A stretch of 64,000 nucleotides of DNA from an uncultured virus (IMG/VR IMGVR_UViG_3300034062_004993) (taxonomy: Duplodnaviria > Heunggongvirae > Uroviricota > Caudoviricetes): IMG/VR virus record IMGVR_UViG_3300034062_004993. One strand, 5' to 3'. Numbering within the stretch: position 1 is the first letter of the stretch; every line of letters starts with the position of its first letter. The position numbers and the translations under genes are program-made. Positions 1-33,200 of the stretch are shown piece after piece. Under the pieces are notes generated by a model, which searched no databases, was not told the DNA's origin, and worked only from the letters and a program-made list of their open reading frames with translations.

Positions 1-1876
1 TAGGTATTACGGGAGTCATCGCAGCTAAACCAACAGCCAAAGGTATAAAAGCTAATCCAAGAGCGGCAAACGCAGGAGCTAAACTTAACAATCCGTTGGC
101 TGTTTCTGGTGTTGCTATTTTTACAATAAAATCTCCAATTGAACCTATAACTTCCCCAATGGCTTTTCCTATCGCTATTATTCCTGGTGCTGCTAATTTA
201 AGTGCAAATCCCAAACCTATAATACCAGCAGTAACTACACCAACACCAAGCGCAACCTGAGGAGATGCGAATGATTTAAATCCTACGGCTATACCTTGCA
301 TAGCACTACCAACACCTCTTCCTGTACTACCAATTGATTTATCAATACTACCTACTTTTCCACCATCTACATTGGTATCTCCGACACCAGGAACTATATC
401 AGATACACCTCCCCCACCCCTTTTGAATAAATTTAATGGATTAAGGTTTTTGAGACCAGAACTACCTGTCATTACTTTGTTGAAAATTATAGCCTGAGCA
501 ACCATTTTTACTAATTCCAATGTCATAGCACCAAAGCCGGCTCCTGCGGATGTTGCTCCTGCCGTTATAGCACCCATAAAAGCACTTCCTTGTTCCAATA
601 ATTCTGTGTTAAGGTCAAACGCTTGATTTGCTTTTTCCATCGCCAAAAGCCGTTCATGATCCATACCTAACATATTTTGTACTATTTCTTGTTGTTCATA
701 ACTCATTTCTGAATAATTTTCTTGGTCACCCATTTGTTCTTTTATTACATTTAAAAGATTTTTTTCCGCTTCTAATTTATTTTCTGTACCCCTAGCGGTT
801 CGTAGTTGTACAGCAGCGCCTGTTAAAGCTTGGACATCAAGTTGTTTTCCTGTCATTAATCGAAATTTATTTGCTTGTTGAATATTATTTTCAATATCCA
901 TTAAAGATTTTGAAGAACTTTTTATTGATTCTCTTGTAACACCTTGCTTTACCAATTCTGCGGTTAATCGTGCATTAAGAGCCAATTCTTCTTTTGTTGC
1001 ATTTACAATTAAGTCCTGATTTTCTGCCATTTCCTTTGCAACTTTATTTGCATTCACACCCACACTACCTGCAATTTCTTCTATATTATGTACAACATCA
1101 CTCGCAGCAATTCCAGCATTTTCATACGCTAAAGCCAAATCAACGGCAGATGCCGCATCTCCCGTTAGAGCAGATAATTGAGTAACACCTTTTATCATAT
1201 CTGATGTTGCCATACCAGCATTTCCGTATTGGTCTGCTAATGCATGTGCTGCTTCTGCAGTTGCTTCAGAACCATATAATAATCCGGTCATACTGAAATT
1301 TGCTTTTCCAATCTCACCACCAATTATCGCCGCATCTCCAGCACTTATACCAAGCTGATGGGTCATATGAAACGCAGTTCCAACTATATTACTAAATTGT
1401 TCCCCCATTTTTTCAAATCCACTAATTGCTGCTTTTGCACCAAGTGCGAAAATACCTCCGGTTTTAAATATTTCAGCTATATCTTCACTTCCACCCAAAA
1501 CTCCAGCTAATTCTCCTTTTAATTCTTTATAAAGTTCTTTTTGTTTTTCTAAATTATCTTCTTGTTCTTTTGTTTTTTTTAATAGCGCAATTTGCGTATC
1601 AAGCATATCCAATGCTATTTTACTAATCTTTCTACCAAGCTTTACTTCATTTTCAATAAAAGCATCTCTTTTTTCAATTAAAGCTGATATTTGACTTTCT
1701 AAATCGTTGTGCTCTTTTACAACAGAAACAATTTCTTTCATCTTTTCTTTAGTTGAATCACTCAAATTATTTGCGATTTGAAAGTTTTTTGCAAATATGT
1801 TACTCATATCACGAGCATTTTCAAGAGCTTTTAAAGTATCTCTTCCCAAATTCGGCGAATCAGTATCCATTGCCAT
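1..1876 (-). CDS. Probable tape measure protein, N-terminal part (runs off the left edge)
   Basis: Not in the ORF track because it has no stop in the window. ATG at 1876 (MAMDTDSPNLGRDTLKALENARD...). Coiled-coil, Ala-rich sequence followed by hydrophobic Gly/Ala helices (LLSLAPAFAALGLAFIPLAVGLAAM). Lies downstream of tube and chaperone genes. Confidence 0.7.
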   Translation of the reverse strand, partial: MAMDTDSPNLGRDTLKALENARDMSNIFAKNFQIANNLSDSTKEKMKEIVSVVKEHNDLESQISALIEKRDAFIENEVKLGRKISKIALDMLDTQIALLKKTKEQEDNLEKQKELYKELKGELAGVLGGSEDIAEIFKTGGIFALGAKAAISGFEKMGEQFSNIVGTAFHMTHQLGISAGDAAIIGGEIGKANFSMTGLLYGSEATAEAAHALADQYGNAGMATSDMIKGVTQLSALTGDAASAVDLALAYENAGIAASDVVHNIEEIAGSVGVNANKVAKEMAENQDLIVNATKEELALNARLTAELVKQGVTRESIKSSSKSLMDIENNIQQANKFRLMTGKQLDVQALTGAAVQLRTARGTENKLEAEKNLLNVIKEQMGDQENYSEMSYEQQEIVQNMLGMDHERLLAMEKANQAFDLNTELLEQGSAFMGAITAGATSAGAGFGAMTLELVKMVAQAIIFNKVMTGSSGLKNLNPLNLFKRGGGGVSDIVPGVGDTNVDGGKVGSIDKSIGSTGRGVGSAMQGIAVGFKSFASPQVALGVGVVTAGIIGLGFALKLAAPGIIAIGKAIGEVIGSIGDFIVKIATPETANGLLSLAPAFAALGLAFIPLAVGLAAMTPVIP

Positions 1877-3939: not shown

Positions 3940-6336
3940 TTATCCTTCTGGGAATGCTGCACCAGTTGGTAATACAGTAAAGTCTAACACGATGAATTCA
4001 GCGGTTTTTGCTGGTTGTAAGAAAATATCACCTTTTAAGATATTTCTATCAATTACATCAGGAGTGTTGTTTGTATCATCCATTACAACTCTAAATGCGT
4101 ACAAACCATTTCTTTGTTGAATTGATTCCAAATAAGGATTAACAATGGATAAGAAACGATTTCGGGTTGCTGCTGTGTTATTCTCAAACACCAAATATCT
4201 TGAAGAAGATGCGATAAACTTCTTAACTGCAATCAACAACCTTCTTACATTAATTCTATCCAAAGCAGATGGTTTAGCTTGTAGGGTTTTCTGTCCGAAT
4301 ACCGTTGCACCCTGCCCTGGGAATGTTGCGATTGGATTTACTCTACCAACATACAACTCATCTCTTTCATCATGCGTTAATCTTGTCTTAACTTCAATTA
4401 CATTTGATAAACCACCCCTATTTAATCCAGCAGGTGCGTACCATTCAGCTGCGACTTGGTCGTTGAATGCTATAACACCAGGTAAAACTACCGAAGGTGG
4501 GACCCAGACAGGTTTATTTTTATCAGTATCCAATATTTTAACCCACGGATGATAAGTTGCTACATAATTAGAATCGAATGATGCCAAATCATTAACAACC
4601 GTCGAAATACTATCACTATAAGCCCCTGCATCCATTATATAGAATGTATCACCTCTATCTTCGCAAAGGTCTTTTGCGTAAGTGGTTACTGAAGAATGTA
4701 ATCTATTGATAATACCTGGAAGAACCAACATATTCATATCAAATTCATCAGGATTTGATACCGCATTAATTGCTTTTCTCAATGCAGTAGTTCCTGCTGC
4801 CGTTGCGGATGAACAATCCAATCCCTGTGTATTTCCTGCTGAAATGCTACTACCAACCTCTATTTTTCTATTTGGTGCAAATCCATCAAAGCCACCTTGG
4901 AATGGGACCATAAATCTTCTTGCATCCAATGCTGCGGTTGATGCTCCAACGCTTAATGTTATAGGAGTACCATTTGATTCACAAGTAGCCAAATCAAAAT
5001 CAGAGCCGGCTGTAGTTAAACCGGTTTTAGGAAGAGGATTTAAGAAATTTAAGTTATCAGTAGTTACAAAATCATAAGAATAACCTAAAAATACTCTTTT
5101 GTTATACGAACCATCCAAAGATTGACTTACCACATAAGTTGGTGATGGAACGGTGTATGTATTTGGAATTGGTGAATTTAATGCCCCAAATCCAAATGGA
5201 ACTAATGATACATCATTTGCAAGCGCATCCACATCGGTATCTACCTCAACTCTAACATAAACTGAATTGTTTGCGTAATCACCATTTGTGGATAGTTTTC
5301 CATTATCGTCTACAGTAATATATTTATCCCCAATAACCCGTTTGATATAATTTGGTGAGTTAGGGTCAAGATTTAAGTTTGAGAATTGTTCAACAATATT
5401 TGGACGAGAATCCGTATCTTGTACACCCTGCCCAAAAATTGAATAAGGGATTTTAGATGTATCTACCCTTCTAATTACAACATCAAATGAACCATAATCC
5501 GTACCAGGAACATCACCCGATGCTTTAATGTTGGTAATACCAACCTTTAATTCATAGTTTGTTGAATTACCATGTGATAATGTATGAAACTTAAATAAGT
5601 TTTTGGCAACACCACCAATCTTTTGAGATTTAATCCAAGGGGTGGATGCTACTGAATATTGATTCGTAAAATCAAATAGTGTAAATGAACCTGTCTGAAC
5701 CGTTACAGTCTGACCTGTTGTTGCAAATGATTCTGATTGGAATGTATTAAAGTTTAAGTAAGTATATGCTGTCTTTGAACTTTTTGGTAAATAACCATAA
5801 GTTTTTGTAAAATAATTGGCGTTACTTGGATTCATTGAAGCAGTAACACTTGTCGAAGAAACACTACTACCAGATAAAGTTAATACAAACGATGATGCGG
5901 TTATACCACCAGTCGCACCATTTGTATTGGTAACTCTTGAAGAATCAAATATATCCGATGGAGTTGAAGTATTTGAAAGTGAGCCTGAAATAGTAGGATA
6001 CAATACTGCTGCTACCCTATTCCCAGCCGAAGATGAAATTGTTAAAACCAACGGGTCGCCAAATGAATACCCTTCTGTTCCCAATACCCTAACAATAGTT
6101 GCGTTTGGGGCGTCTTGTAAATAAGCTTGAGCAGTATAAGGAAGATAAGAATCTTCAGTTAAACCGCCAAACTTTTGTTGGAATTCATTAAATGATTGTA
6201 CTTGCGTTGGGACAAATGCAGGTCCTTTGATGGTTTGTCCAATAAGGACACCACCTATTTCTGCTACACCTTGTGGTAAAAATGATAAGTCACGCTCTCG
6301 GGTGAAAACGCCAGGACTAACAATTCTTTCAGCCAT
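3940..6336 (-). CDS. Tail sheath protein (T4 gp18-like)
   Basis: N-terminal SPGVFTRERDLS; C-terminal WYAPAGLNRG, FGQKTLQ, DRINVRRLL, PAKTAEFIVLDF. Confidence 0.97.
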   Translation of the reverse strand: MAERIVSPGVFTRERDLSFLPQGVAEIGGVLIGQTIKGPAFVPTQVQSFNEFQQKFGGLTEDSYLPYTAQAYLQDAPNATIVRVLGTEGYSFGDPLVLTISSSAGNRVAAVLYPTISGSLSNTSTPSDIFDSSRVTNTNGATGGITASSFVLTLSGSSVSSTSVTASMNPSNANYFTKTYGYLPKSSKTAYTYLNFNTFQSESFATTGQTVTVQTGSFTLFDFTNQYSVASTPWIKSQKIGGVAKNLFKFHTLSHGNSTNYELKVGITNIKASGDVPGTDYGSFDVVIRRVDTSKIPYSIFGQGVQDTDSRPNIVEQFSNLNLDPNSPNYIKRVIGDKYITVDDNGKLSTNGDYANNSVYVRVEVDTDVDALANDVSLVPFGFGALNSPIPNTYTVPSPTYVVSQSLDGSYNKRVFLGYSYDFVTTDNLNFLNPLPKTGLTTAGSDFDLATCESNGTPITLSVGASTAALDARRFMVPFQGGFDGFAPNRKIEVGSSISAGNTQGLDCSSATAAGTTALRKAINAVSNPDEFDMNMLVLPGIINRLHSSVTTYAKDLCEDRGDTFYIMDAGAYSDSISTVVNDLASFDSNYVATYHPWVKILDTDKNKPVWVPPSVVLPGVIAFNDQVAAEWYAPAGLNRGGLSNVIEVKTRLTHDERDELYVGRVNPIATFPGQGATVFGQKTLQAKPSALDRINVRRLLIAVKKFIASSSRYLVFENNTAATRNRFLSIVNPYLESIQQRNGLYAFRVVMDDTNNTPDVIDRNILKGDIFLQPAKTAEFIVLDFTVLPTGAAFPEG

Positions 6337-6399
6337 TATATTCTCCTAATAGTTTTTGTTTCTATATAATAAATACAAAAAAATTAGGGAAACCTATAT

Positions 6400-6681
6400 T
6401 TATTGAGCCGATGTAAAGGTATTTGTATCAATATCGTATGAACCCACTCCATATTTTTGAGTAAGTTCTTTTCCAAACTCATTTTGGGTTTGAGCGAGTT
6501 CTTTATAATTTTTAATTAATTCTTCCTTTTCGGCTCGCAAACTTGCGAAAATTTCCTCTAATTCTTTGGATTGTATTTCTATTTCTCCAAGTCTTGCCGT
6601 AACTGCCAAGTTTTTTTGACGAAATTCTAAAAGTCGTTCTCTTTCAGTATCTTCAAATTGCTTTACTACTTTTTCTTCCAT
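6400..6681 (-). CDS. Small coiled-coil hypothetical protein
   Basis: 93 aa helical ORF ending KYGVGSYDIDTNTF; TATTTAT upstream. Confidence 0.7.
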   Translation of the reverse strand: MEEKVVKQFEDTERERLLEFRQKNLAVTARLGEIEIQSKELEEIFASLRAEKEELIKNYKELAQTQNEFGKELTQKYGVGSYDIDTNTFTSAQ

Positions 6682-6725
6682 AGATTTTGTTTTTTATATT
6701 GTTTATTAATAAATATTGAAAAAAG

Positions 6726-7562
6726 TTATTTAAAATCAGTTTCTTCGTTTAATCCACCACTTAATTTTGGACTTTCATTAAAAATTATTTTTCCAACTGA
6801 ATATATTTTTTTATTGTTTGGTATCATCCCCGCATATTCGGGTATAATATAGGCTTTTGTAACCAAAGTAATACTTGCTCTTACAATTCTATCATCATTT
6901 ATATCTTGTATCGTTTCAAAGTTATAACTATCACCTTTTACCTGAAACTTAAACCTATCACCAAAAGACCTTCCTTGAAAGAAAATAATTTGTTCAACTA
7001 CTTTGTTTAATTGTTCCATATAATCACACCAAACCGTCATTTCATACGAAACATCTAAATAATCAGGTCTTTCTACTGCTATATATTCTTTTACAGGTTT
7101 TTGCCCCGTCAATAATGAAAATTGGTCATATCTATTAGCTTTTGTATATTTCCGTTCAAATGCTTGATGCGCATCTTCGGAGTTTAATACTTTTAACTTT
7201 GCTGCATTTTGATTTGTGGATAACCCCGTTCTTTTAAATACAATAATTGGTGTTTGTATTTTACCATTTGTATCCCGTATAAAAGAATCTTTTTGAGCCG
7301 ATGACCATTTTTCAGGATTTGCATAAATAACAGGCACACTAATTATTTGCCCATCATCTTCTATAAAAGGTTTTACATTATTGACTAAAAAATCCCTAAA
7401 AGCAAGGTCAATATCATAAATACCTACTGATATATTTTTTGTTTTATCATCATCCCTCCGAACCTGTTTTGCTTTGTTCAACTTCGGGTTTTCCGATGTT
7501 GATGACATAGTCTGCTTTAAATCAGGCTTTTCTGAGTTTATATTTCTATATGTGTTAGGCAT
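6726..7562 (-). CDS. Tail completion / sheath terminator protein (T4 gp15-like)
   Basis: VPVIYANPEKW, PIIVFKRTG and YEMTVWCDYMEQLNKVVEQI motifs; third neck gene before the sheath. Confidence 0.7.
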   Translation of the reverse strand: MPNTYRNINSEKPDLKQTMSSTSENPKLNKAKQVRRDDDKTKNISVGIYDIDLAFRDFLVNNVKPFIEDDGQIISVPVIYANPEKWSSAQKDSFIRDTNGKIQTPIIVFKRTGLSTNQNAAKLKVLNSEDAHQAFERKYTKANRYDQFSLLTGQKPVKEYIAVERPDYLDVSYEMTVWCDYMEQLNKVVEQIIFFQGRSFGDRFKFQVKGDSYNFETIQDINDDRIVRASITLVTKAYIIPEYAGMIPNNKKIYSVGKIIFNESPKLSGGLNEETDFK

Positions 7563-7565
7563 TTA

Positions 7566-8096
7566 TTATATTCCTATTGGTAAATAGTTATCATTTTTGT
7601 TAGAATTCCCAAAGCGAACATCAACCAACTTAATAGATGATTGTTTTGTTACATGCGCAAGACATGAAATAGAAAGTGATGTTCCATGTCCATCTCCACC
7701 ATCCCAAGTTTCGGGATTTTTACCTACAAATAATCGGTTTTCATTTATATTATCAACTAAATAATATTCATTATCCCAATATATTATATCACCTACATCC
7801 GGCTTTACATCTTTATCATCTTTTAAAGTATCTCTTAAAAAGTTAAATGTTGCTGTATGCACATAAGATTGTCCAAAATCATCTGAAACTGCTTCTGTAT
7901 CTTGTCTATCAATTAAGCAAGGGATTTTGACTGGATTATAAAAATATTTATCTTTACTTTCCCCATAAAGATTAACCAATGATTCATCCAATACAGGTTT
8001 GTAATAATAGACTTCCGTATCAATTATTTCATTGATAAGTTCTTTGTTTAATCTTCTAATTAAACTAACATCTCTTGCCGAACCAAATAGTGCCAT
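7566..8096 (-). CDS. Neck / head closure protein (T4 gp14-like)
   Basis: NLYGES and PDVGDIIYW motifs; synteny. Confidence 0.65.
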   Translation of the reverse strand: MALFGSARDVSLIRRLNKELINEIIDTEVYYYKPVLDESLVNLYGESKDKYFYNPVKIPCLIDRQDTEAVSDDFGQSYVHTATFNFLRDTLKDDKDVKPDVGDIIYWDNEYYLVDNINENRLFVGKNPETWDGGDGHGTSLSISCLAHVTKQSSIKLVDVRFGNSNKNDNYLPIGI

Positions 8097-8101
8097 AAAT
8101 A

Positions 8102-9265
8102 TTACCCTATGTAAATTGGCATTGGAACACGATTGAGGGTTGATTCTAAAAATTCGGTTTCATCCTTCTTTGCTTCCAAAAGCGCCCTTTTACTTGTTGC
8201 TTCCAACATCTCTTTTAATTGTGTTACTAATTGCTCTCTTTCAGTTGCAGATTGATTCCTTAAATCAGAACCATCCAAAGTAACTTCTGCGCCAGGTATT
8301 GGAATTGAACTAAATTTAGACCTGACCATACCCAATGAATCTTTTACCAAAGCCAATGTGTATTTAAAAATCCATTGTCTACCATGCGCACTTATATCAC
8401 AATAATCCAATCTACCAAATGGGCTATTTGAAAAATCAGATACTACACCCGATTTTGCTATTGGATTATTTCTTTCAGAATCAAGTGTGTATTCAAAATG
8501 AACTTTTGTTCTATGATAAGTATCGCTTGGGAATGGAAATACACGAATCCGTTTTCCATACATCTTAAATCCAAATTGGGATTTTCTAATCATATCATTA
8601 AACTCAATTGCCTGCAATCTAAGTAGGTCATCATACATAGGCTGCATTAAAAATGAAACACCAGGTGAGTAATTTCCCCAACCAAAAGTTTCTAACATTT
8701 GTTGCGAACCAAGACCCGTTCCAATAAATGGGTCAAAATACCTAACAATGGCAGGTGGATTTTCATGATACAATTTACGAATTGTAATTGAATCGGTTGA
8801 TAAATTACCTGCCTCTAAACTTACAATAGTACTATCTGATAAATCATAAATTTGCTTTCCACTAACTAACTCAAAAGAACCAGTGTAATGGGTCAATGTT
8901 CCGCCGGATTTTGCTTCAGTTCCATAATCTGCGGCAATGTTTATTATTCCACTAAAATTATTATTTATTAATTTCCCATTTAAATTATTGGTCAATAAAG
9001 AACCCTGTAAACTTAATAGGTTTTCCTTTGTCCTATATTGATTTAATTGTGATGAAAATTCATCTGTTGCTTCCTCAAAGCAGGCGTAAAAATCTATATC
9101 TTGTAGTTCTATATCTACAACAGGATAACCCAATCTACGAGCGCACCATGTTATTACCGAATCAGCATCTGTCTGAAAATCGTAATCATTATCGAACCAC
9201 CCAAATGGTGTTTTGCCGGGAAAGAATGATGATGAACCAGGATATATTGCGATATTTACTGCCAT
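8102..9265 (-). CDS. Neck protein (T4 gp13-like)
   Basis: RRLGYPVVDIEL, WIFKYTLALVK, RSKFSSIPIPGAEVTLDG and terminal PMPIYIG motifs. Confidence 0.85.
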   Translation of the reverse strand: MAVNIAIYPGSSSFFPGKTPFGWFDNDYDFQTDADSVITWCARRLGYPVVDIELQDIDFYACFEEATDEFSSQLNQYRTKENLLSLQGSLLTNNLNGKLINNNFSGIINIAADYGTEAKSGGTLTHYTGSFELVSGKQIYDLSDSTIVSLEAGNLSTDSITIRKLYHENPPAIVRYFDPFIGTGLGSQQMLETFGWGNYSPGVSFLMQPMYDDLLRLQAIEFNDMIRKSQFGFKMYGKRIRVFPFPSDTYHRTKVHFEYTLDSERNNPIAKSGVVSDFSNSPFGRLDYCDISAHGRQWIFKYTLALVKDSLGMVRSKFSSIPIPGAEVTLDGSDLRNQSATEREQLVTQLKEMLEATSKRALLEAKKDETEFLESTLNRVPMPIYIG

Positions 9266-9282
9266 TTTGTGTTACCTATGTT

Positions 9283-9675
9283 TTATTCACCAAGTATATC
9301 GGTTGGTGTGGTTTCTTCACTATTATCTTCTTCAACAATAGTTTCTTCGGTTTCAGTTGTTACTTCTTCAACAACAGGCTTAACATAATGTTCAAATGTT
9401 GAAAACTCATTTACTTCATTTGCAGATTTTAAATGGTTTATAACATAATTCTCCAAAGCATTCAATAATTGGTCATGCCCATTTGTTATAGAATTATCAT
9501 AAACAAGTTCCGATTTATCAATAGATTGATACGCAACAGTTCCATTATTATCAATATGAACATCGAGCGCAATTCCGCCTGGATATACCAAATGTGGAAC
9601 AAGTGTTAAAATTGGTGATTGGTGAATTAAACCAGTTGTTGGGTTTTGAAAAAATCCTGTTACTTTAATTGCCAT
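9283..9675 (-). CDS. Hypothetical protein with acidic tail
   Basis: ORF track; AGGAG SD and TATTTAT upstream. Confidence 0.7.
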   Translation of the reverse strand: MAIKVTGFFQNPTTGLIHQSPILTLVPHLVYPGGIALDVHIDNNGTVAYQSIDKSELVYDNSITNGHDQLLNALENYVINHLKSANEVNEFSTFEHYVKPVVEEVTTETEETIVEEDNSEETTPTDILGE

Positions 9676-19913: not shown

Positions 19914-21398
19914 TTATTTCAACTTTTTAATTTCTTCTTTTAGTTCTTTTATTTCATCTAAAAGATGTTTAATTACTGCTGCATGATATGGTATCATACT
20001 TACATAACTAACACCAAATTCATAACCTTCTTTTGATATGTTACCCTCTTCGTCTGTATGTTCTTTAATTAATGGGTTTTCTGCTATTGTAATTAAATGG
20101 TCAAATCCATTTTTCATAACATCTTGCGCAATAACCCCTACATCGTATTTACCAGTTATTGTATCTAAATTATCACTACTTTCAGGTCTTTTCCAATTAA
20201 ATGAAACAGGTTTTACATTTTCTATCAACCTTAATGCGGTTTCAATATCTATACCTTTAATATTTTCTTTTAACCTAACATCCGATGTTGAGGATATTCC
20301 AGATGAACCAAGAGACCTAATTTCTTGCGCAGTAACAGCACCATCGGTAAATATACCCGTATTTATTACATTATATGGGTTAGATATTTGTTCAGGACTA
20401 ATCATTACCCCCGACATAGAATTATCAGGATGTCTAATTGATGTGTAATAAGATGTATTTCCCGTTTTGGGTGGTGGGTGTCTCAATGTACCATAATTAG
20501 TAGTACCTGGAGTTGGATTATATACTTTTACAGCAATTGGTGGGGATGCGCCTCTAGATGATAGATTAAATAAATCTTGAAACCCAATATACACAATTCC
20601 AGCTTTATTTTGGTCTCTTAACGCATCAGTATTATTTCTAAGATTTGCAGCGGTTTCGGTTGTTCTAGTAATTCTAACAGGCCCATAGAAATCGGAAATA
20701 TTATTATTTGTTGGTTTTATTTCTACCAAATTTCTTAATGTGTTTGGAGTTCCATGTGGACCGAAAAAACCATTTCCAATTATTGTCGCAAACGCCAACG
20801 ATGAACCAGTATTAAGAGTTCCCTTTACATGCTGACCATGACCCTCCGCAATTGTATAAGTTCCTTCTGCATGGGAATAATCACCATTTGCTTTTGTAGA
20901 AAATCCTTCAGCATGGGAATAATCACCATTTGCTAGTGTACTCAATCCTTCAGCATGGGAATAATCACCATTTGCTGTTGTAGAAATTCCTTCTGCATGG
21001 GAAGCCGTACCATTTGCATTAGTATATTGACCTTCTGCATGGGAATAATCACCATTCGCCGCATTTTGAAAACCATTAGAAAGAGTGCCTAAAATTTGCA
21101 ATGTTGCTGTTGGTAGTACTGCACCCGTTCCTATTCCGATTCTACTTCCACTTTCATAAATTGAAGAGGTTGTAATAGTAGTGTTTCCACTCCAACGGGT
21201 TATATAATTTTGAGTTCCACTTCCACCAATAACACTACCACCGCTTACTAGCGATGATGCTGAAAAGTAGGTGAATATGCCTGATTGTGAATTATAACCA
21301 ACAATATTTGCTTGTGCGGTATTTGGTAAACCACTTGCGGTTATGTTTAATACGTGTATTGCACTACCTGATTGTAGTATCTTTTTCCATGATGGCAT
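19914..21398 (-). CDS. Fibre protein with ANGDYSHAEG repeats and C-terminal intramolecular chaperone (peptidase S74-like)
   Basis: Five 14-aa SHAEG repeats; TSDVRLKENI...VKPVSFNWK...GVIAQDV plus terminal coiled coil. Confidence 0.85.
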   Translation of the reverse strand: MPSWKKILQSGSAIHVLNITASGLPNTAQANIVGYNSQSGIFTYFSASSLVSGGSVIGGSGTQNYITRWSGNTTITTSSIYESGSRIGIGTGAVLPTATLQILGTLSNGFQNAANGDYSHAEGQYTNANGTASHAEGISTTANGDYSHAEGLSTLANGDYSHAEGFSTKANGDYSHAEGTYTIAEGHGQHVKGTLNTGSSLAFATIIGNGFFGPHGTPNTLRNLVEIKPTNNNISDFYGPVRITRTTETAANLRNNTDALRDQNKAGIVYIGFQDLFNLSSRGASPPIAVKVYNPTPGTTNYGTLRHPPPKTGNTSYYTSIRHPDNSMSGVMISPEQISNPYNVINTGIFTDGAVTAQEIRSLGSSGISSTSDVRLKENIKGIDIETALRLIENVKPVSFNWKRPESSDNLDTITGKYDVGVIAQDVMKNGFDHLITIAENPLIKEHTDEEGNISKEGYEFGVSYVSMIPYHAAVIKHLLDEIKELKEEIKKLK

Positions 21399-21403
21399 AC
21401 TTC

Positions 21404-21487
21404 ACTCACTAATTTATAACACATTATGGTTGGATACACATACTAAGTGAGTAGTATATGGGCCCACTTCCTTATTCAGGCCAATAA
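21404..21487 (-). ncRNA. Candidate cis-regulatory structured RNA in a 5' leader
   Basis: GC-richer island in an AT-rich intergenic gap with nested stems (21437-21444/21453-21460; 21470-21472/21478-21480; 21424-21433/21481-21487). The loop is complementary to 21404-21410. Confidence 0.45.
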
Positions 21488-21551
21488 TATGTTTTGGTTA
21501 TACTCTATTATATAAGTATGGAAAAATATTTTATTATTGTTTATTTCCCCA

Positions 21552-23354
21552 CTATGAGTATATCCAAATATCGCCATTATTTTGGATATGCATATTACCA
21601 AATCCAAAAGAAGCGCTACCAAAAGTTGGTGCATTTGAATCGGATGGGGCGGCTGATGATGCGGAAACCGTTACCATAAAATCGGTTGGAGTTACATTCA
21701 TTGAACCTGTTGGTACACCCAATGCTACACCCCATCTATTTGCTAAACCATTTGCTGCACCACTACCGCTATTGAATACGAAAGCAGAACCACTACCATT
21801 TGCTCCTTCAATAATTATACCACCTTCGGATGAGGGTGTTAAAGAACCTGAACTTCTTCCTAAAACGATAAACTTATCTTCTATTGATATGTTTGATGTG
21901 TTTATTACCGTTGTATCACCGTTTACAGTTAAATCACCAGTAACAGTTAAATTATTTCGAACAGTAGTTGTACCGGTTGTAGCACCTATGGCGACTGTAG
22001 TCGCTACCCCACCAATGTTTAGGGTAGTAGCGTTTGTATTAAATATAGTAGTAGTTCCAGTTGATGTTGTTGTTATATCACCACCATTTACTGCTAAATC
22101 CCCACCAATGGAAATATTACCACTTGCGGTTATATGTGTAAATGAGGGGGAATCTGCAAAGTCAAATGTTAATGTATCGGGTGTAGTAGCAGCACTAATC
22201 GTTATGTTTACATCGGATGATGAAATGATTAAAGTATCTGCCGAAGAATCTGCTTGCGCTGTACCAGTCGAACCACCCAAGCCACCAACATTAATAGTTG
22301 CAAACGAATTAATACCCGTTATACTACCCGATGGTAATGTTGCTACTTTAACGAGCTCACCACCAGAACCAACTAAAGCTATATTATAGCCTGCATTGTC
22401 CGTCACCAATGGCAATCCCGATGCGGTTAGGGTTGATGTGGCTAAATTGGTAAATGTTGGAGAGTCTTTAAATGAAAAGGTTATAGTATCAATACCAGCT
22501 GAACCTGATATTAACAAGTTATTGTTTGTGTTGGAAATCCCAGCAAATGAGCCTGATGCAATACTCAAATTACCTGTTGCAGTATCTGCTATAACGGCTA
22601 CACCACCAACGCTCATTGTTGCATAAGCATTTGTTCCCGCCACACTTTGTATAGAAGCGCTTAAAGCCGCAATTGTTGCTGCAGCATAATCACCAATGTA
22701 TAAGTATGCATCAACATGGGTTGGTATTGTTGAAGCGCCTGCTGCAAATTGTGTTGGGTCTTGTATCCACAAAATACCCGCAGAACAATCAACTACCCAG
22801 TCGGATTGGTCTGTGGGTTCTATTAAAATACTTCCTGAATATAATCTAGGTGTATAATTCTCGCCAAAAGCAGGTGGAACAATTTGTAATCCAAATCCAC
22901 TACCAGTTAAATGATAATTATTTACATATGGAGCAGTTCCTTTTTTGGGGTTGGATGAATTACTAACACTTTCATAACTACCTGTTAATCTAAGTGCATA
23001 AGTGTGATTTGTAGATGATATATTAATTTCACCTTGTTGTTCAATTGTTGTTCCTACTAAATCAGCTGGTGCTGTATATGGATAGTTACCACTACCAACT
23101 GCAGTCAACTGAAATCTTACATATTCTAATACAGGCTTACCACCCAATGATTGGGAATAAAGTGTATAAATGGTTGGAGCGGTTGTTGGTATTTGTGAAT
23201 TTATTGGTAATTGATCAGCAAATATACTCTGTCCCCCCAATTGAACAGTTGATGAAATGATTTCATTTGGGGTTGGATTTAGTGGGGTGGTATGTGCTTT
23301 ACCATCCAATCGTTTACTAACAATATCTAATTTATTAAGCTGAGTTACTGCCAT
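21552..23354 (-). CDS. Fibre-like virion protein, partial paralog of 25718..27739
   Basis: ITASGNIS, LTVTGDLTVNGDTT and IEDKFI motifs; C-terminal FGNMHIQNNGDIWIYS. Confidence 0.75.
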   Translation of the reverse strand: MAVTQLNKLDIVSKRLDGKAHTTPLNPTPNEIISSTVQLGGQSIFADQLPINSQIPTTAPTIYTLYSQSLGGKPVLEYVRFQLTAVGSGNYPYTAPADLVGTTIEQQGEINISSTNHTYALRLTGSYESVSNSSNPKKGTAPYVNNYHLTGSGFGLQIVPPAFGENYTPRLYSGSILIEPTDQSDWVVDCSAGILWIQDPTQFAAGASTIPTHVDAYLYIGDYAAATIAALSASIQSVAGTNAYATMSVGGVAVIADTATGNLSIASGSFAGISNTNNNLLISGSAGIDTITFSFKDSPTFTNLATSTLTASGLPLVTDNAGYNIALVGSGGELVKVATLPSGSITGINSFATINVGGLGGSTGTAQADSSADTLIISSSDVNITISAATTPDTLTFDFADSPSFTHITASGNISIGGDLAVNGGDITTTSTGTTTIFNTNATTLNIGGVATTVAIGATTGTTTVRNNLTVTGDLTVNGDTTVINTSNISIEDKFIVLGRSSGSLTPSSEGGIIIEGANGSGSAFVFNSGSGAANGLANRWGVALGVPTGSMNVTPTDFMVTVSASSAAPSDSNAPTFGSASFGFGNMHIQNNGDIWIYS

Positions 23355-23409: not shown

Positions 23410-25419
23410 TTATGCTACTGTTATTTGTGTTATTCTCCCCGTCCAACCAGTTGTTGCGGTAATTCTAACTAACCAATTGGTATCCGAAGATGGTAGGCCA
23501 GGCCAGCTTTGATTTCTCATATTAATTGTTTTTGCTGTACCACTATTAATAGCAGCACCATCACCACAACCAACATTGTCATCAAATTGTGTATAAGATG
23601 TAGGAGCAGCCACTAACAAATCACGATATCCAGTACTCTCTGGTATTTTAATATGTATGTAGGCGTTTTGGCTTGCTAATGCGGTAGTATTAGCTACAAA
23701 TCCTGAAGTCATACCAGTCCATGAAATTGTTATATTTTTTTGAGAATTACTACCATCAGATGCATTATGCAAAAACCTTCTATACAAATATTTAGTTCCG
23801 CTCAATGCACTATAGTCTGGAACAGTACCTGCTTTATATACCGCGCCACTCATATTACCAACAACCGATGGATAAACTAACGCATTGTCAAAAAATGCCA
23901 ATTCGCTTGTGAGTGTACCCAATGATGTGGTTGCATTATACACAGCAGTAGTTAAAGATGCTTGGGTATCATAGGAAGCGGATGGGACTCTGTGGCTTTC
24001 AGTTGTGAAATACTCAATTTTAGTAGTTGGTATCGATGTATTTGTATGTATGATAATTGTTGGTGTACTTATTGTTTGTGGTCCAGTTGTTTTTCCTTGA
24101 ACACCAAGTGCTGTATAAGTTACTGATATTGGGTTGTTTAATGCCCTCGCATTCGTCCCAAATGTAAATGAAGAAGTTGCTTGTAAATTTGAATTGAAAT
24201 TAGTAGGTGCGGGTGGTGTATATGATGTAACAGAACCCGATGTTCCTGTGGATGAAAATGTTATAGCGGTTGAATTATAACTACAACTATAAAAACCAGG
24301 AACACTACCACTTGCAATAAAAGTAAGAGCAGTACGATACGGAATCCCCGAAATCCATTTAAGACCTGTTGGATTAAATGAATGTGTTGAATTTGTTGGT
24401 GCTGAAAATGATGTACCTGCTTGTGCTGGATCAAAAACCCAATCTGCGTAATTTGTCATTTTCATAGAAGATGATTGTATTACTTTTACATAATTCCATC
24501 CTCTTTGAAAAAATGATGATGTTATTGTTAAAGTACCGGTTCTATGCCTTCTATACACAAATGATAATCCCGTATCTTTAAATGATCCGGTTTGTGCAGC
24601 AGATAAACTAAAATTATTAGCATCTGAAAAAGCGGATGTTCCTGTTGTAGTTACTTTAAATTGCTGATTGTTTATTTCAACAATATAACTCTCACCACCA
24701 TCCGCAGGAACACTAAAAGCATCCGCTGGATAGTTTGTAAACGAAGCCGAATCAGGAGTAGTACTTTCGTTTATATCAAATGTTAGGGAACGTGATGCTG
24801 TAAAAATACCGAGTCTATAATAAGTACTGCTTGGCGATGTTGTATTTGTAACAGCTATAAAAGATTCCCCATTGTTTACCGCAGTACTCATCGGAGCTAC
24901 ACTGCCAGTTCCACTTGAGCTGATGTACCCTGTCGCAACAACACCACTACCAAACGATAATCTTGTGTTTGAAGTTGTATTAGCGCTTGTTGCTAATCCT
25001 TCAAGATTTCTAACATCAGGTGCTGAAGATGGGGCTAATCCATTTAACACCTCATTAAACCTATCAATCGCAGTACCAATTGGTGTTGTTTGTGCGGAAA
25101 AATCAGTAAAAAGACCATCGCTATAATCACTATCTTCAGCAGAACCAATTGTTATATTTCCACCAACTACAGTATGATTTGAGGCGGTTGTGAGTGTGGT
25201 AATACCATTCCACACAGCTAGTTTGTTTGCTTCACCACCAGTACCAGCATATGTTACTGCATTTGCGGTTGCAATTGATGATGTATCGAATTTAGTAATA
25301 TTACCCGAGCCATCTATACCAAGTACTTGAGCTTGACCGGCCGTTGGTAAATTACTCGCGGTTATGTTAGTAAAACTTCCGTCGCTACCTGATATTAATA
25401 TTCGTTTCCATTCTGCCAT
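23410..25419 (-). CDS. S/T-rich virion protein with WKR leader
   Basis: 669 aa; MAEWKRILISGS start; YSDGLFTDF...GTAIDRFNEVL motif. Confidence 0.7.
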   Translation of the reverse strand: MAEWKRILISGSDGSFTNITASNLPTAGQAQVLGIDGSGNITKFDTSSIATANAVTYAGTGGEANKLAVWNGITTLTTASNHTVVGGNITIGSAEDSDYSDGLFTDFSAQTTPIGTAIDRFNEVLNGLAPSSAPDVRNLEGLATSANTTSNTRLSFGSGVVATGYISSSGTGSVAPMSTAVNNGESFIAVTNTTSPSSTYYRLGIFTASRSLTFDINESTTPDSASFTNYPADAFSVPADGGESYIVEINNQQFKVTTTGTSAFSDANNFSLSAAQTGSFKDTGLSFVYRRHRTGTLTITSSFFQRGWNYVKVIQSSSMKMTNYADWVFDPAQAGTSFSAPTNSTHSFNPTGLKWISGIPYRTALTFIASGSVPGFYSCSYNSTAITFSSTGTSGSVTSYTPPAPTNFNSNLQATSSFTFGTNARALNNPISVTYTALGVQGKTTGPQTISTPTIIIHTNTSIPTTKIEYFTTESHRVPSASYDTQASLTTAVYNATTSLGTLTSELAFFDNALVYPSVVGNMSGAVYKAGTVPDYSALSGTKYLYRRFLHNASDGSNSQKNITISWTGMTSGFVANTTALASQNAYIHIKIPESTGYRDLLVAAPTSYTQFDDNVGCGDGAAINSGTAKTINMRNQSWPGLPSSDTNWLVRITATTGWTGRITQITVA

Positions 25420-25453: not shown

Positions 25454-25699
25454 TTATTTATCTTTTTTTGTTTTTTTTCCGCTCAATACAATAAATTGAG
25501 ATTGTAATTTTATAATTGTATTATAGACCAATTCAACATCAGAAACTTTAAATGTTGAATCCTTTATTGCGCTTAACAAAAAGGTAATCTCTTCCAACCC
25601 CAAATCATTTTCATTTGATGTTTGTTGTTTTGTTTCCACTACAACTTCTTCTTGTTGTGGTTGAACACTCTTTGTTCTTAATTTATCTAAAATTGACAT
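25454..25699 (-). CDS. Small hypothetical protein, possible fibre chaperone
   Basis: 81 aa helical ORF; AGGAG SD. Confidence 0.65.
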   Translation of the reverse strand: MSILDKLRTKSVQPQQEEVVVETKQQTSNENDLGLEEITFLLSAIKDSTFKVSDVELVYNTIIKLQSQFIVLSGKKTKKDK

Positions 25700-25717: not shown

Positions 25718-27739
25718 TTAAATATACATCCAAATTGTATTATTAGATGTGTTGATATGAACATTTCCAAATCCAGCAGAAGCGCTTCCATATGTTGGTG
25801 CTCCAGCGGCCGTATTTAATGGGTTTGCAGTAGATGCGCTTACACTCACCAAATAATCCGTAGGTGTTACTGTAGTAGCGTTATGGACAACATTGTTGTT
25901 TAATCCCCAACGAGCGCTTCCATCTGCGGGTACATTTGTACCATTATAAAAAAGAGCTGAACCCGTTGATATACCACTACTACCAGATGTAGTTTGAACT
26001 ATAATACCACCATCAGTTGTAGTACCGGAGCCGGATGCTAATAATATAAACTTATCTTCTATTGATATATTTGTTGTGTTTATTATTGTTGTATCACCGT
26101 TTACAGTTAAATCACCAGTAACAGTTAAATTCCCACCAACAGTAGCATTAGTTGCAACAGCCAATGTTGTACCAATAGTGGCTGCACCACTTGTTGTAAG
26201 CGTTTGGCCTATTAATCCTGCGGATGAACTAATATTGCCTGATGCGGTTATTTGTGTTGTAGTTAAATTACCGCCAATAGTTCCATTTCCGCTTGTGTTT
26301 AGTGTCGCACCTATTAATCCTGCGGATGAACTTATGTTACCACTAGCGGTTATGTTTGTAGTTGTTATAGCACCATTAGCAGTTAATCTGCCTGTTATAG
26401 TGCTTGTTCCACCAATAGTTTCGTTGCCTGTAATACTTAAATTACCACTTCCGCTTATGTTACCACTTGCGGTTATGTTTGTAAAACGCGGGGAATCGTT
26501 AAATGAGAAAGTTATAACATCATCTTGGCTGGCGGATATTAACAAGTTATTGTTTGTGTTGGCACTTCCCGCAAATGAGCCTGAATTGATAGTTAAAATA
26601 TCTGCTGAACTATCGGCTGTTACTGTAACCCCACCAATTGTTATATTTGAAAATGAATTGATACCTGCTACATTACCCGATGGTAATGTTGCTACTTTAA
26701 CAAATTCACCACTAGAACTAACTAAAAGGATATGCAATCCTGATAAACTTGCGCTTGTTATTTCTGGTGTTGCTGATGCGGTTATGGTTGTGGTTGTTAA
26801 TGCACCATTAGCGCTTAGTCTACCACCAATAGTTGCAGTTCCGCTTGTTGTGAGTGTAGCGCCTATTAAACCTGCAGATGAACTTATGTTACCCGATGAA
26901 GTTATTTGATTTACTACTATTGATTTAATTTCTTTACTTGATGAACCAATAACAATAGCATTATCTGCAAATGGAATTAAATCGGAATTTAATAACCCAT
27001 CACCCAATGCAAAAAGACCATATACATTTACAGAATCATTAGAATCCCCTCCAAGATTTACACTACCATTAAAATTGGTTTGTGTTGTACTACCACCAAT
27101 ATTTACAGTAGTAGCCCCACCTCCTAAATCAAGTTGAGTTAGATTTCCATCAAATATGCGAGCATTTCCAGTAAATGTAGTTGTTATATCACCACCATTT
27201 ACTGCTAAATCCCCACCAACAGTAGCTCCACCACTTGTTGTAAGCGTTTGGCCTGTTAATCCTGCGGATGAACTAATATTGCCTGATGCGGTTATGTTTG
27301 TAGTTGTTATAGCACCATTAGCAGTTAATCTGCCTGTTAAGGTTGATGTTCCCGTAATACTTAAATTACCACTTCCGCTTATGTTACCACTTGCGGTTAT
27401 GTTTGTAAATGAGGGGGAATCTGCAAAGTCAAATGTTAATGTATCAGTTCCAGAATTAGTAGTAATCGTTAGGTTTGCATCGGATGATGAAATGATTAAG
27501 TTATCTGATGCACCATCTGCAAACACTGTTCCAGTTGAACCACCCAAGCCACCAACACTCATTGTAACGAATGAAAGAACGGATTGCCCTGTTAATGTTG
27601 CTTGTGAAACCTGTCTAACTTCACCTGCAGTACTTATTAATAACACATTTTCAGTTGTACCTGTTGGAACCTGGCTTGCGGTTACGCTTGTTAGATGGGC
27701 ATTACTACCTGATACTATTACTTTTTTCCATGATGCCAT
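25718..27739 (-). CDS. Fibre-like virion protein with ITASGNISSS repeats
   Basis: MASWKKVIVSGS start; multiple ITASGNIS repeats; C-terminal FGNVHINTSNNTIWMYI. Confidence 0.8.
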   Translation of the reverse strand: MASWKKVIVSGSNAHLTSVTASQVPTGTTENVLLISTAGEVRQVSQATLTGQSVLSFVTMSVGGLGGSTGTVFADGASDNLIISSSDANLTITTNSGTDTLTFDFADSPSFTNITASGNISGSGNLSITGTSTLTGRLTANGAITTTNITASGNISSSAGLTGQTLTTSGGATVGGDLAVNGGDITTTFTGNARIFDGNLTQLDLGGGATTVNIGGSTTQTNFNGSVNLGGDSNDSVNVYGLFALGDGLLNSDLIPFADNAIVIGSSSKEIKSIVVNQITSSGNISSSAGLIGATLTTSGTATIGGRLSANGALTTTTITASATPEITSASLSGLHILLVSSSGEFVKVATLPSGNVAGINSFSNITIGGVTVTADSSADILTINSGSFAGSANTNNNLLISASQDDVITFSFNDSPRFTNITASGNISGSGNLSITGNETIGGTSTITGRLTANGAITTTNITASGNISSSAGLIGATLNTSGNGTIGGNLTTTQITASGNISSSAGLIGQTLTTSGAATIGTTLAVATNATVGGNLTVTGDLTVNGDTTIINTTNISIEDKFILLASGSGTTTDGGIIVQTTSGSSGISTGSALFYNGTNVPADGSARWGLNNNVVHNATTVTPTDYLVSVSASTANPLNTAAGAPTYGSASAGFGNVHINTSNNTIWMYI

Positions 27740-32942: not shown

Positions 32943-33200
32943 TTATTCTGCTTTACTTTTCAGATATTGTTTTCTAATGGCCAATTCCATTTTTTTTCTT
33001 TTTTCTATTGATTTTGGTACGAATTCAGTTCTTTCTTTCAAAACATCCATCATTCCGCTATCTTTAACCATTTTTTTGAAAAGTCTTAATGCTGCTTCAA
33101 CATTATTGTCTACCACTTTAACTGCCATTCCCCTACCAGGAACATACATTAACTCTCTTCTAATTTTTTTCTTTTTTGGTCTTTCTTCGTTTTCGTTCAT
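32943..33200 (-). CDS. rpsU: Phage-encoded ribosomal protein bS21
   Basis: VKVVDNNVEAALRLFKKMVKDSG...LKERTEFVPKSIEKRKK matches the bS21 pattern. Confidence 0.9.
   Translation of the reverse strand: MNENEERPKKKKIRRELMYVPGRGMAVKVVDNNVEAALRLFKKMVKDSGMMDVLKERTEFVPKSIEKRKKMELAIRKQYLKSKAE

Follow-up and report, generated by a model that had tools for sequence, protein, structure and literature searches.

The leader of a tail-fibre-like gene in an uncultured phage carries a compact RNA that folds, on comparative evidence, as a three-way junction and is a member of a conserved, covarying family without an Rfam entry, which searches of viral and metagenomic sequence indicate is widespread among aquatic phages and uncatalogued. 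The RNA is very likely tied to the fibre gene in a cis-regulatory role. The reading favoured here, with a probability of roughly 55%, is that, at the 5' end of the fibre mRNA, it serves as an off-switch of translation that acts in cis and is locked by a factor acting in trans. The DNA analysed, called the window, is a stretch of 64,000 nucleotides from IMG/VR record IMGVR_UViG_3300034062_004993 (Caudoviricetes), and coordinates are those of the window unless another record is named.

The source virus record, of 161.6 kb, carries a T4-like major capsid protein, terminase, tail sheath and PhoH. Its phage-encoded ribosomal protein bS21 points to a Bacteroidota host, and Bacteroidetes are the predicted hosts of bS21-carrying myoviruses of similar kind (PMC9723584, in part). 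By capsid protein, the nearest cultured phages among the best 30 records are Microcystis phage Mel-JY01 (58%) and Flavobacterium phage immuto (53%). Outside the window, positions 128948-160832 of the source record hold 37 tRNA calls, mostly in one array, of which the intron-predicted ones may be false. The RNA locus is flanked on one side by a 600-aa gene (21552-23354) and on the other by the fibre-like gene (Table 1).

Table 1. Coordinates of the RNA element, its parts and the associated genes in the window.
Feature	Position	Strand	Basis or remark
RNA motif, 76 nt, three-way junction	21418-21493	-	fold and comparative evidence
Late-promoter-like box TACTTATA	21511..21518 (read 21518-21511)	-	just 5' of the RNA
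P1 5' strand: 10-nt outer stem, bulged U (21483), then GG	21481..21493	-	parsed copies and alignment
P2 hairpin CCU-GAAUA-AGG	21470..21480	-	closing C-G invariant; length and loop vary, often GNRA
J2/3 junction strand AAG	21467..21469	-	invariant, 81/81 aligned rows
P3: UGG/CCA, G-U pair, 2-nt bulge, distal hairpin	21431..21466	-	distal pairs covary strongly
P3 loop ACUCACU	21446..21452 (read 21452-21446)	-	lineage-specific; complement of 21404-21410
J3/1 A (21430, invariant), CC, P1 3' strand	21418..21430	-	parsed copies and alignment
AGUGAGU, loop target, at Shine-Dalgarno position	21404..21410 (read 21410-21404)	-	kept in 6/6 lineage copies
494-aa tail-fibre-like gene, MPSWKK start, C-terminal Peptidase_S74 chaperone	19914..21398	-	PF13884 E 1.3e-13; PHROG tail fibre families
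81-aa helical protein	25454..25699	-	candidate partner; no known fold or family
Ribosomal protein bS21 gene	32943-33200	-	PHROG E 4.5e-05; among head genes

A preliminary description, made from the letters of the window, had reported on the minus strand a closed, GC-richer island of several stems whose loop ACUCACU is complementary to an AGUGAGU before the start codon; both the letters and the complementarity were confirmed. The island folds as a three-way junction, and its 76 nt contain 37% G+C, compared with 21% in the remaining 58 intergenic bases and 34% window-wide. The loop target occupies positions -12 to -6 and is followed by 5 nt and the AUG at 21398, and the free ACUCACU/AGUGAGU duplex amounts to -10.2 kcal/mol. 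Rfam 15 covariance models gave no match in the window, and none at E<=10 over 21300-21600, while over 20 homologous loci they gave 7 weak matches below the gathering score, none on the motif by coordinates. No second copy was found in the phage's own genome. The box TACTTATA is a putative promoter, from which transcription probably begins immediately 5' of the RNA; the pattern TA[T/C]TTATA occurs 28 times on the minus strand of the window and 5 times on the plus strand, with 16 of the 28 minus-strand occurrences within 130 nt upstream of an ORF start, zones that make up 10% of the window.

Folding of this single sequence is modestly better than that of shuffles (z -2.2, 4/200) and depends on the boundaries chosen, with z -2.3 for 21420-21492 (4/300) and -1.0 to -1.2 for four other boundaries. 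The reality of the RNA therefore rests on comparison rather than on a single-sequence z, that is, on covariation in three helices, on shuffled alignments and on an independent consensus fold. A total of 171 distinct leaders were parsed (3 further rows of one sequence were unparsed and dropped), and the alignment comprises 81 of them, after thinning to a likeness of about 90% or less. The family architecture consists of P1 (an outer stem, one bulged base and two pairs), P2, AAG, P3 and one A, where P3 is built of three pairs, an R-Y pair, a 2-nt bulge and a hairpin. The labels P1 to P3, GNRA and pseudoknot are general nomenclature. In the 81 aligned copies, pairing is kept in 92.7% of paired cells and double changes are seen at 13 of the 19 pairs, so that the homologous leaders, to which the preliminary description had pointed for a check, display both conservation and covariation. 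Shuffles, which ignore relatedness, reached the observed values in 0/500 cases on four of five measures and in 75/500 on the fifth; slid control alignments pair at 29-49%, and RNAalifold, unaided, recovered 18 of the same pairs.

The same 171 copies define what is fixed and what is free. The P1 bulge is U, A or C and never G (171/171), the inner P1 pair is G-C in 165 and A-U in 6, the middle P3 pair is G-C in 146 and A-U in 25 with no mixed state, and the 2-nt P3 bulge is AA in 118, AU in 32, UA in 13 and otherwise in 8. The invariant core is formed by G-C, C-G, AAG, U-A, G-C and A, with freely variable arms, a combination of invariant unpaired bases and free arms from which we infer a putative binding site. 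By this comparison, the invariant part of the element is the junction and not the ACUCACU/AGUGAGU pair. Moreover, P1 holds 105 G-U against 2 A-C combinations and 64 P2 loops are called GNRA, and it is thus the sense strand that folds, as RNA. The element does border a fibre gene that varies greatly (mean column identity 23% across its first 70 residues), as would a recombination point for fibre exchange or a hairpin acting as DNA; nevertheless, such a DNA-level site is extremely unlikely in view of the sense-strand wobbles and GNRA loops, the fixed place between promoter and AUG, and the loops that match the start codon.

The link between the RNA and the fibre gene is seen from both directions. 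An exact 18-mer from the leader matched 7 viral contigs, all upstream of MPSWKK genes; with looser RNA patterns, 115 of the 120 viral matches listed precede an M[P/A]xWK fibre-like gene, and in a metagenome scan 110 of 117 distinct matches precede MP[N/S]W, 6 have no called gene and 1 stands before another ORF. When leaders were chosen by gene start alone, the GAAGU[A/G]G core was present in 107 of 111 MPN or MPS leaders, with one more found by covariance model, the remainder being one truncated leader and two paralogues without the RNA; none of 4 MPT paralogues has the core. The family covariance model, R1, finds one strong copy per record in 25/25 viral records, chosen for bearing the RNA or an MP[N/S]WKK gene and including 5 with a completeness of 90% or more. 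One R1 copy also occurs in a cultured Flavobacterium phage, Immutovirus immuto, whose host is Flavobacterium sp. LMO8; it lies upstream of immuto26A_219. R1 finds none in Mel-JY01, RM378 and two huge phages. In one record, a second weak R1 match of 19 bits (1501-1542, minus strand) has P1, P2 and GGAAGU with no P3, and is possibly due to chance or a remnant. Near-relative contigs from two metatranscriptomes span the leader, as assembled contigs that carry no strand, start or level.

In cellular genomes, a GTDB scan gave 41 matches with 1 true copy, on a 7.9-kb contig that also carries an MPSWKK phage gene; the other 40, most of them inside ORFs and with the helices absent, are read as chance matches. 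The true copy (contig 2493-2549) sits in a genome labelled Bifidobacterium, probably as a mis-binned phage contig. R1 found no copy in 151 Bacteroidota genomes, a weak negative with 37 candidates scored per genome. A description of the RNA was not found in the open-access literature searched; the supplements of motif surveys (PMC5737381, PMC8040213) could list it under another name.

The RNA follows the gene downstream of it and not the one upstream, since it stays with the fibre gene when the usual upstream neighbour is replaced. This neighbour belongs to a family of small proteins that accounts for 58 of the 66 ORFs next to the RNA on its upstream side. In the other 8 cases another gene takes its place; the window is among these, and there two genes stand between the gene of the 81-aa protein and the RNA. 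The family consists of 55-100-aa helix-loop-helix proteins encoded between fibre genes, with 80 homologues, all hypothetical; a model of the 81-aa protein (pLDDT 65) gave no Foldseek match at E<=0.001, and a comparison with the phi29 scaffolding protein gp7 (E 8) is non-significant and a lead only. Mel-JY01 (PP395634) falls inside the clade on the capsid tree and keeps the small gene without the RNA, and its fibre homologue starts with UUG-Ser behind a plain AGGAG. At 4601-9343 of that genome, the small helical gene is followed by an FkbM methyltransferase, with the unannotated UUG-started fibre homologue near 9152. The recorded host of Mel-JY01 is Microcystis, yet bS21 is present and the phage is nested among these phages.

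Among the fibre proteins, the first 12 residues are nearly fixed, and M1, P2, W4, K5, K6, S10, G11 and S12 are invariant in 54 RNA-linked proteins. Paralogues without the RNA have nearly the same N-terminus; in the window, two paralogues with MASWKK (25718-27739, minus strand) and MAEWKR (23410-25419, minus strand) starts have no leader RNA, and by tblastn the MASWKK paralogue has no match in cultured phages. The MAEWKR gene is preceded by GUGAGA, the target AGUGAGU also contains UGAG, and other genes here use AGGAG; GUGAGA and UGAG resemble the UGAGA word that fits the alternative anti-Shine-Dalgarno sequence of some Flavobacteriales (PMC9976891, in part). One record has a second MPSWKK gene, a recent paralogue; its leader does not contain the motif and is a different, GC-richer, hairpin-like sequence.

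Comparison shows that in almost all copies the predicted fold overlaps the initiation region or extends to it, and that it does so by four routes. The 171 copies fall into a plain group (116), a UGGC P2-loop group (27), a GGCAU P3-loop group (22) and the window lineage (6), counts that include related sequences forming clades on the capsid tree and so do not represent independent events, which makes p-values based on them too optimistic. In the plain group, P1 ends at a median of 10 nt before the AUG, at most 15 nt before it in 106/116, and overlaps the Shine-Dalgarno-like word in 31 of the 57 copies that have one. In the GGCAU group, the P3 loop GGCAU(A) complements (U)AUGCC at the start codon, and the base before the AUG is U in 20/22 copies versus 80/143 others. 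In the UGGC group, P2 is long and its loop UGGC(A) complements (U)GCCA of AUG-CCA, with CCA as codon 2 and a Shine-Dalgarno-like word in 27/27. With metagenome rows included, codon 2 ends in A or G in 49/49 UGGY-loop copies versus 187/213 others, and GGY is present in 52 of 54 long P2 arms; position +7 and the base on the 5' side of UGGC do not covary (14/27 paired). The window lineage keeps ACUCACU/AGUGAGU in 6/6 copies despite spacers of 29-33 nt. The loop-to-initiation-site pairing that the preliminary description proposed is thereby upheld for the window lineage, with analogues in two subgroups, but as a feature of 6 of 171 copies it does not belong to the core of the element.

Spacers have a median of 21.5 nt in the copies that pair through the P3 loop, versus 16 nt. 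One lineage of four leaders has a spacer of 118-121 nt, and three of these hold a second CCAAC(G/A)AUAC segment that, by eye, could pair with the P1 5' strand in a possible mutually exclusive fold; two further leaders have a 57-nt spacer. On a capsid-protein tree of 32 rows, the 5 rows of the window group and the 4 rows of the P2-loop group each form a single clade, the former closest to plain rows, and GGCAU copies appear in three places; the tree does not date the RNA, because fibre modules may move.

The promoter box lies upstream of P1 in 100/116 plain and 22/22 GGCAU copies and is nearby in 1/27 UGGC copies. Within the spacer this box is found in 1/171, and a candidate T4-type promoter inside the leader (TATAAAT, 21418-21412) was rejected, the word being found in only 3/171 spacers. 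In the T4 gene e and I-TevI hairpins, too, a late gene has its initiation region covered by RNA structure, which hides the ribosome-binding site on long transcripts (PMC3014915, in part), but there the late promoter is inside the structure, whereas in the phage RNA it is upstream. Some copies are intergenic without a nearby promoter and, together with the small invariant core and the single variable bulged base of P1, could be taken for a new self-cleaving ribozyme or a processing site that trims the late transcript; this is very unlikely for an RNA present as a single copy in a single gene context, with start-matched loops and no match to an Rfam ribozyme.

How the fold might act on the start site was evaluated with predicted energies. 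Opening the region from -15 to +10 under nested folding costs about 4 kcal/mol, versus 4.9 in 44 control genes of the window (p 0.11), so that the start is not more closed than in controls and constitutive occlusion by nested structure was rejected. In all four groups, nested folds pair the AUG with the motif no more than shuffles do, and the nested alternative fold over the AUG envisaged in the preliminary description is accordingly no likelier than in shuffled controls. That description had also extended the pseudoknot over the start codon through AUAC/GUAU; this helix cannot be added, because its strand already forms the P3 stem, and it is left as an alternative fold only, which in the window is about 5 kcal/mol weaker (-19.6 versus -24.7 kcal/mol) and in some relatives near-equal. 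A family-wide pairing of the 5' UUGGC with AUG-CCAA was rejected as well, since a bulged A never occurs with U at +6 (0/29) and AUG pairing is not above shuffles. As nested structure adds no closure beyond that of controls, a block would have to be due to the pseudoknot or to a P1 that something else stabilises.

A fixed attenuator, always folded and ligand-free, would hold fibre synthesis constantly low, in keeping with the window-lineage junction, which is stable alone (median probability of the junction G-C pair 0.8, compared with 0.22-0.32 in the three other groups), with the strong loop-target duplex, and with the closeness of P1 to the AUG and the Shine-Dalgarno-like word in plain copies. 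Such an attenuator is improbable, however, as it needs no invariant unpaired AAG and A across phages with capsid proteins 53-87% identical to that of the window, and the predicted opening cost is not above controls. In another reading, the junction is an on-switch that recruits ribosomes or a factor (for example, ribosomes with phage bS21), and the RNA is off at rest, when the loop is paired. These phages do carry bS21 (PMC9723584, in part), initiation in Bacteroidia relies on low structure near the start (PMC9976891, in part), and a start-pairing, junction-breaking fold has the lowest energy in 3/6 window-lineage copies with one 3' boundary and in 1/6 with a boundary 3 nt longer. Nested AUG pairing does not exceed shuffles in the four groups, though, the loop-to-start pairings are compatible with the folded junction, and an activator would be expected upstream of many late genes and not once per genome, which makes this reading quite improbable.

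The anatomy of the RNA, with an invariant junction, variable arms and several expression platforms, resembles that of riboswitches, and locally it is like two real aptamers, glutamine-I and c-di-GMP-II. The glutamine-I riboswitch (glnA RNA, RF01739) is likewise a three-way junction, with variable P2 and P3; it is close to the phage RNA in size, contains GGAAGU[A/G]G and is present in aquatic phages. In RF01739, however, GGAAGU[A/G]G is an unpaired 8-nt junction facing GAAG, whereas covariation shows that in the phage RNA GG and U[A/G]G are paired. Membership, which would place an unpaired GGAAGUAG junction opposite GAAG, was rejected, as there is no GAA on the 3' side (0/171) and U[A/G]G pairs with C[U/C]A (25 A-U, 146 G-C). 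The RF01739 model gave no match on 5 RNA-bearing records, in a search that included a positive control, and R1 does not score the Melnitz aptamer.

The c-di-GMP-II riboswitch (RF01786) shares with the phage RNA a local UGGGC paired to GY-(2 nt)-CC. In RF01786 the shared element is a pseudoknot, and in the phage RNA it is a nested helix. The element overlaps the ligand contacts of c-di-GMP-II, U37, G39 and C68-A74 (PMC7288161, in part), but the contact run C68-A69-A70-C71-C72-G73-A74 is here mostly U-A-A-C-C-A-A, and at the equivalent of G73, 169 of the 171 copies have A, 2 have U and none has G. The kink-turn (UGA opposite GAG...AGU) and the long loop-bearing stem, present in 3 real aptamers, are absent from the 81 aligned rows, and membership in this class was rejected too. 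The models of the two RNAs do not cross-score, and a c-di-GMP-II motif scan gave no match in viral contigs and none in two plasmids.

A new class of small-molecule riboswitch, in which the junction senses a host metabolite or second messenger and tunes fibre output, is conceivable all the same, since phage riboswitches exist: phage-borne glutamine riboswitches are reported (PMC9004378, in part), and one was recovered here. It is nevertheless unlikely, given the restriction to one gene family, the lack of cellular copies in the GTDB and Bacteroidota scans described above, the variation of the 2-nt bulge and the absence of any family-like copy with G at the G73 position in 59 matches. A riboswitch confined to phages, for example for a cyclic dinucleotide held in a c-di-GMP-II-like pocket with G73 changed to A, would set the dose of the receptor-binding fibre via interchangeable pseudoknots, and is unlikely too.

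Most likely, by analogy, the phage RNA works like protein-bound translational operators. Some examples are the T4 gene 32 pseudoknot and gene 43 hairpin, the E. coli rpsO-S15 operator and the Aca1/Aca2 leaders, which also have a structured 5' leader on one gene or operon and act on the initiation region, and which are protein-bound in the known cases (PMC3014915, and PMC13551039 for the Aca leaders, each in part). As in autogenous operators, a structured leader is here fixed to one gene and overlaps or reaches the initiation region. The comparison does not rest on sequence likeness, and there are two differences: the repressors of known operators are nucleic-acid-binding proteins, whereas here the gene encodes a virion fibre without a known RNA-binding fold, and unlike the listed operators the phage RNA is a three-way junction with interchangeable loop-to-start pairings.

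The proposed off-switch would thus function as follows. In most copies the junction is only marginally stable alone, and a trans factor would bind the invariant core and lock the fold; the loop pseudoknot of the locked fold would then cover the start site and translation would fall, the off-when-bound direction being the one we infer. This reading follows from the invariant unpaired bases with free arms, the marginal junction, the RNA that follows the fibre gene and the contrast with Mel-JY01, and the match of a loop to the start region in three subgroups suggests a switch that limits the amount of fibre. Switching and the control of translation, as put forward in the preliminary description, would both follow from such a mechanism. 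The trans factor would probably be a late phage protein. The simplest candidate, if a tentative and rather doubtful one, is the unassembled fibre itself, which could bind through its invariant basic and aromatic N-terminus in a feedback coupled to assembly; this step is weak because the paralogues without the RNA share that N-terminus and no RNA-binding homologue was found, the search for an RNA-binding fold in the N-terminus giving no PDB match and Atlas leads below 0.9. Otherwise, the factor would be another phage protein or a host protein.

The RNA represents a compact (about 50-75 nt), strongly conserved class outside Rfam, located on the gene for the host-recognition fibre and present in a large set of Bacteroidota myoviruses from fresh water and the sea. 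If it is bound by a protein, the supply of a virion fibre would be set by feedback on its own message, a case of which no example was found in the literature searched; if it is bound by a ligand, it would be a riboswitch class known from phages only. Finally, one core with three loop-to-start pairings provides natural variants for testing, and a cultured pair, Immutovirus immuto and Flavobacterium sp. LMO8, carries the RNA.
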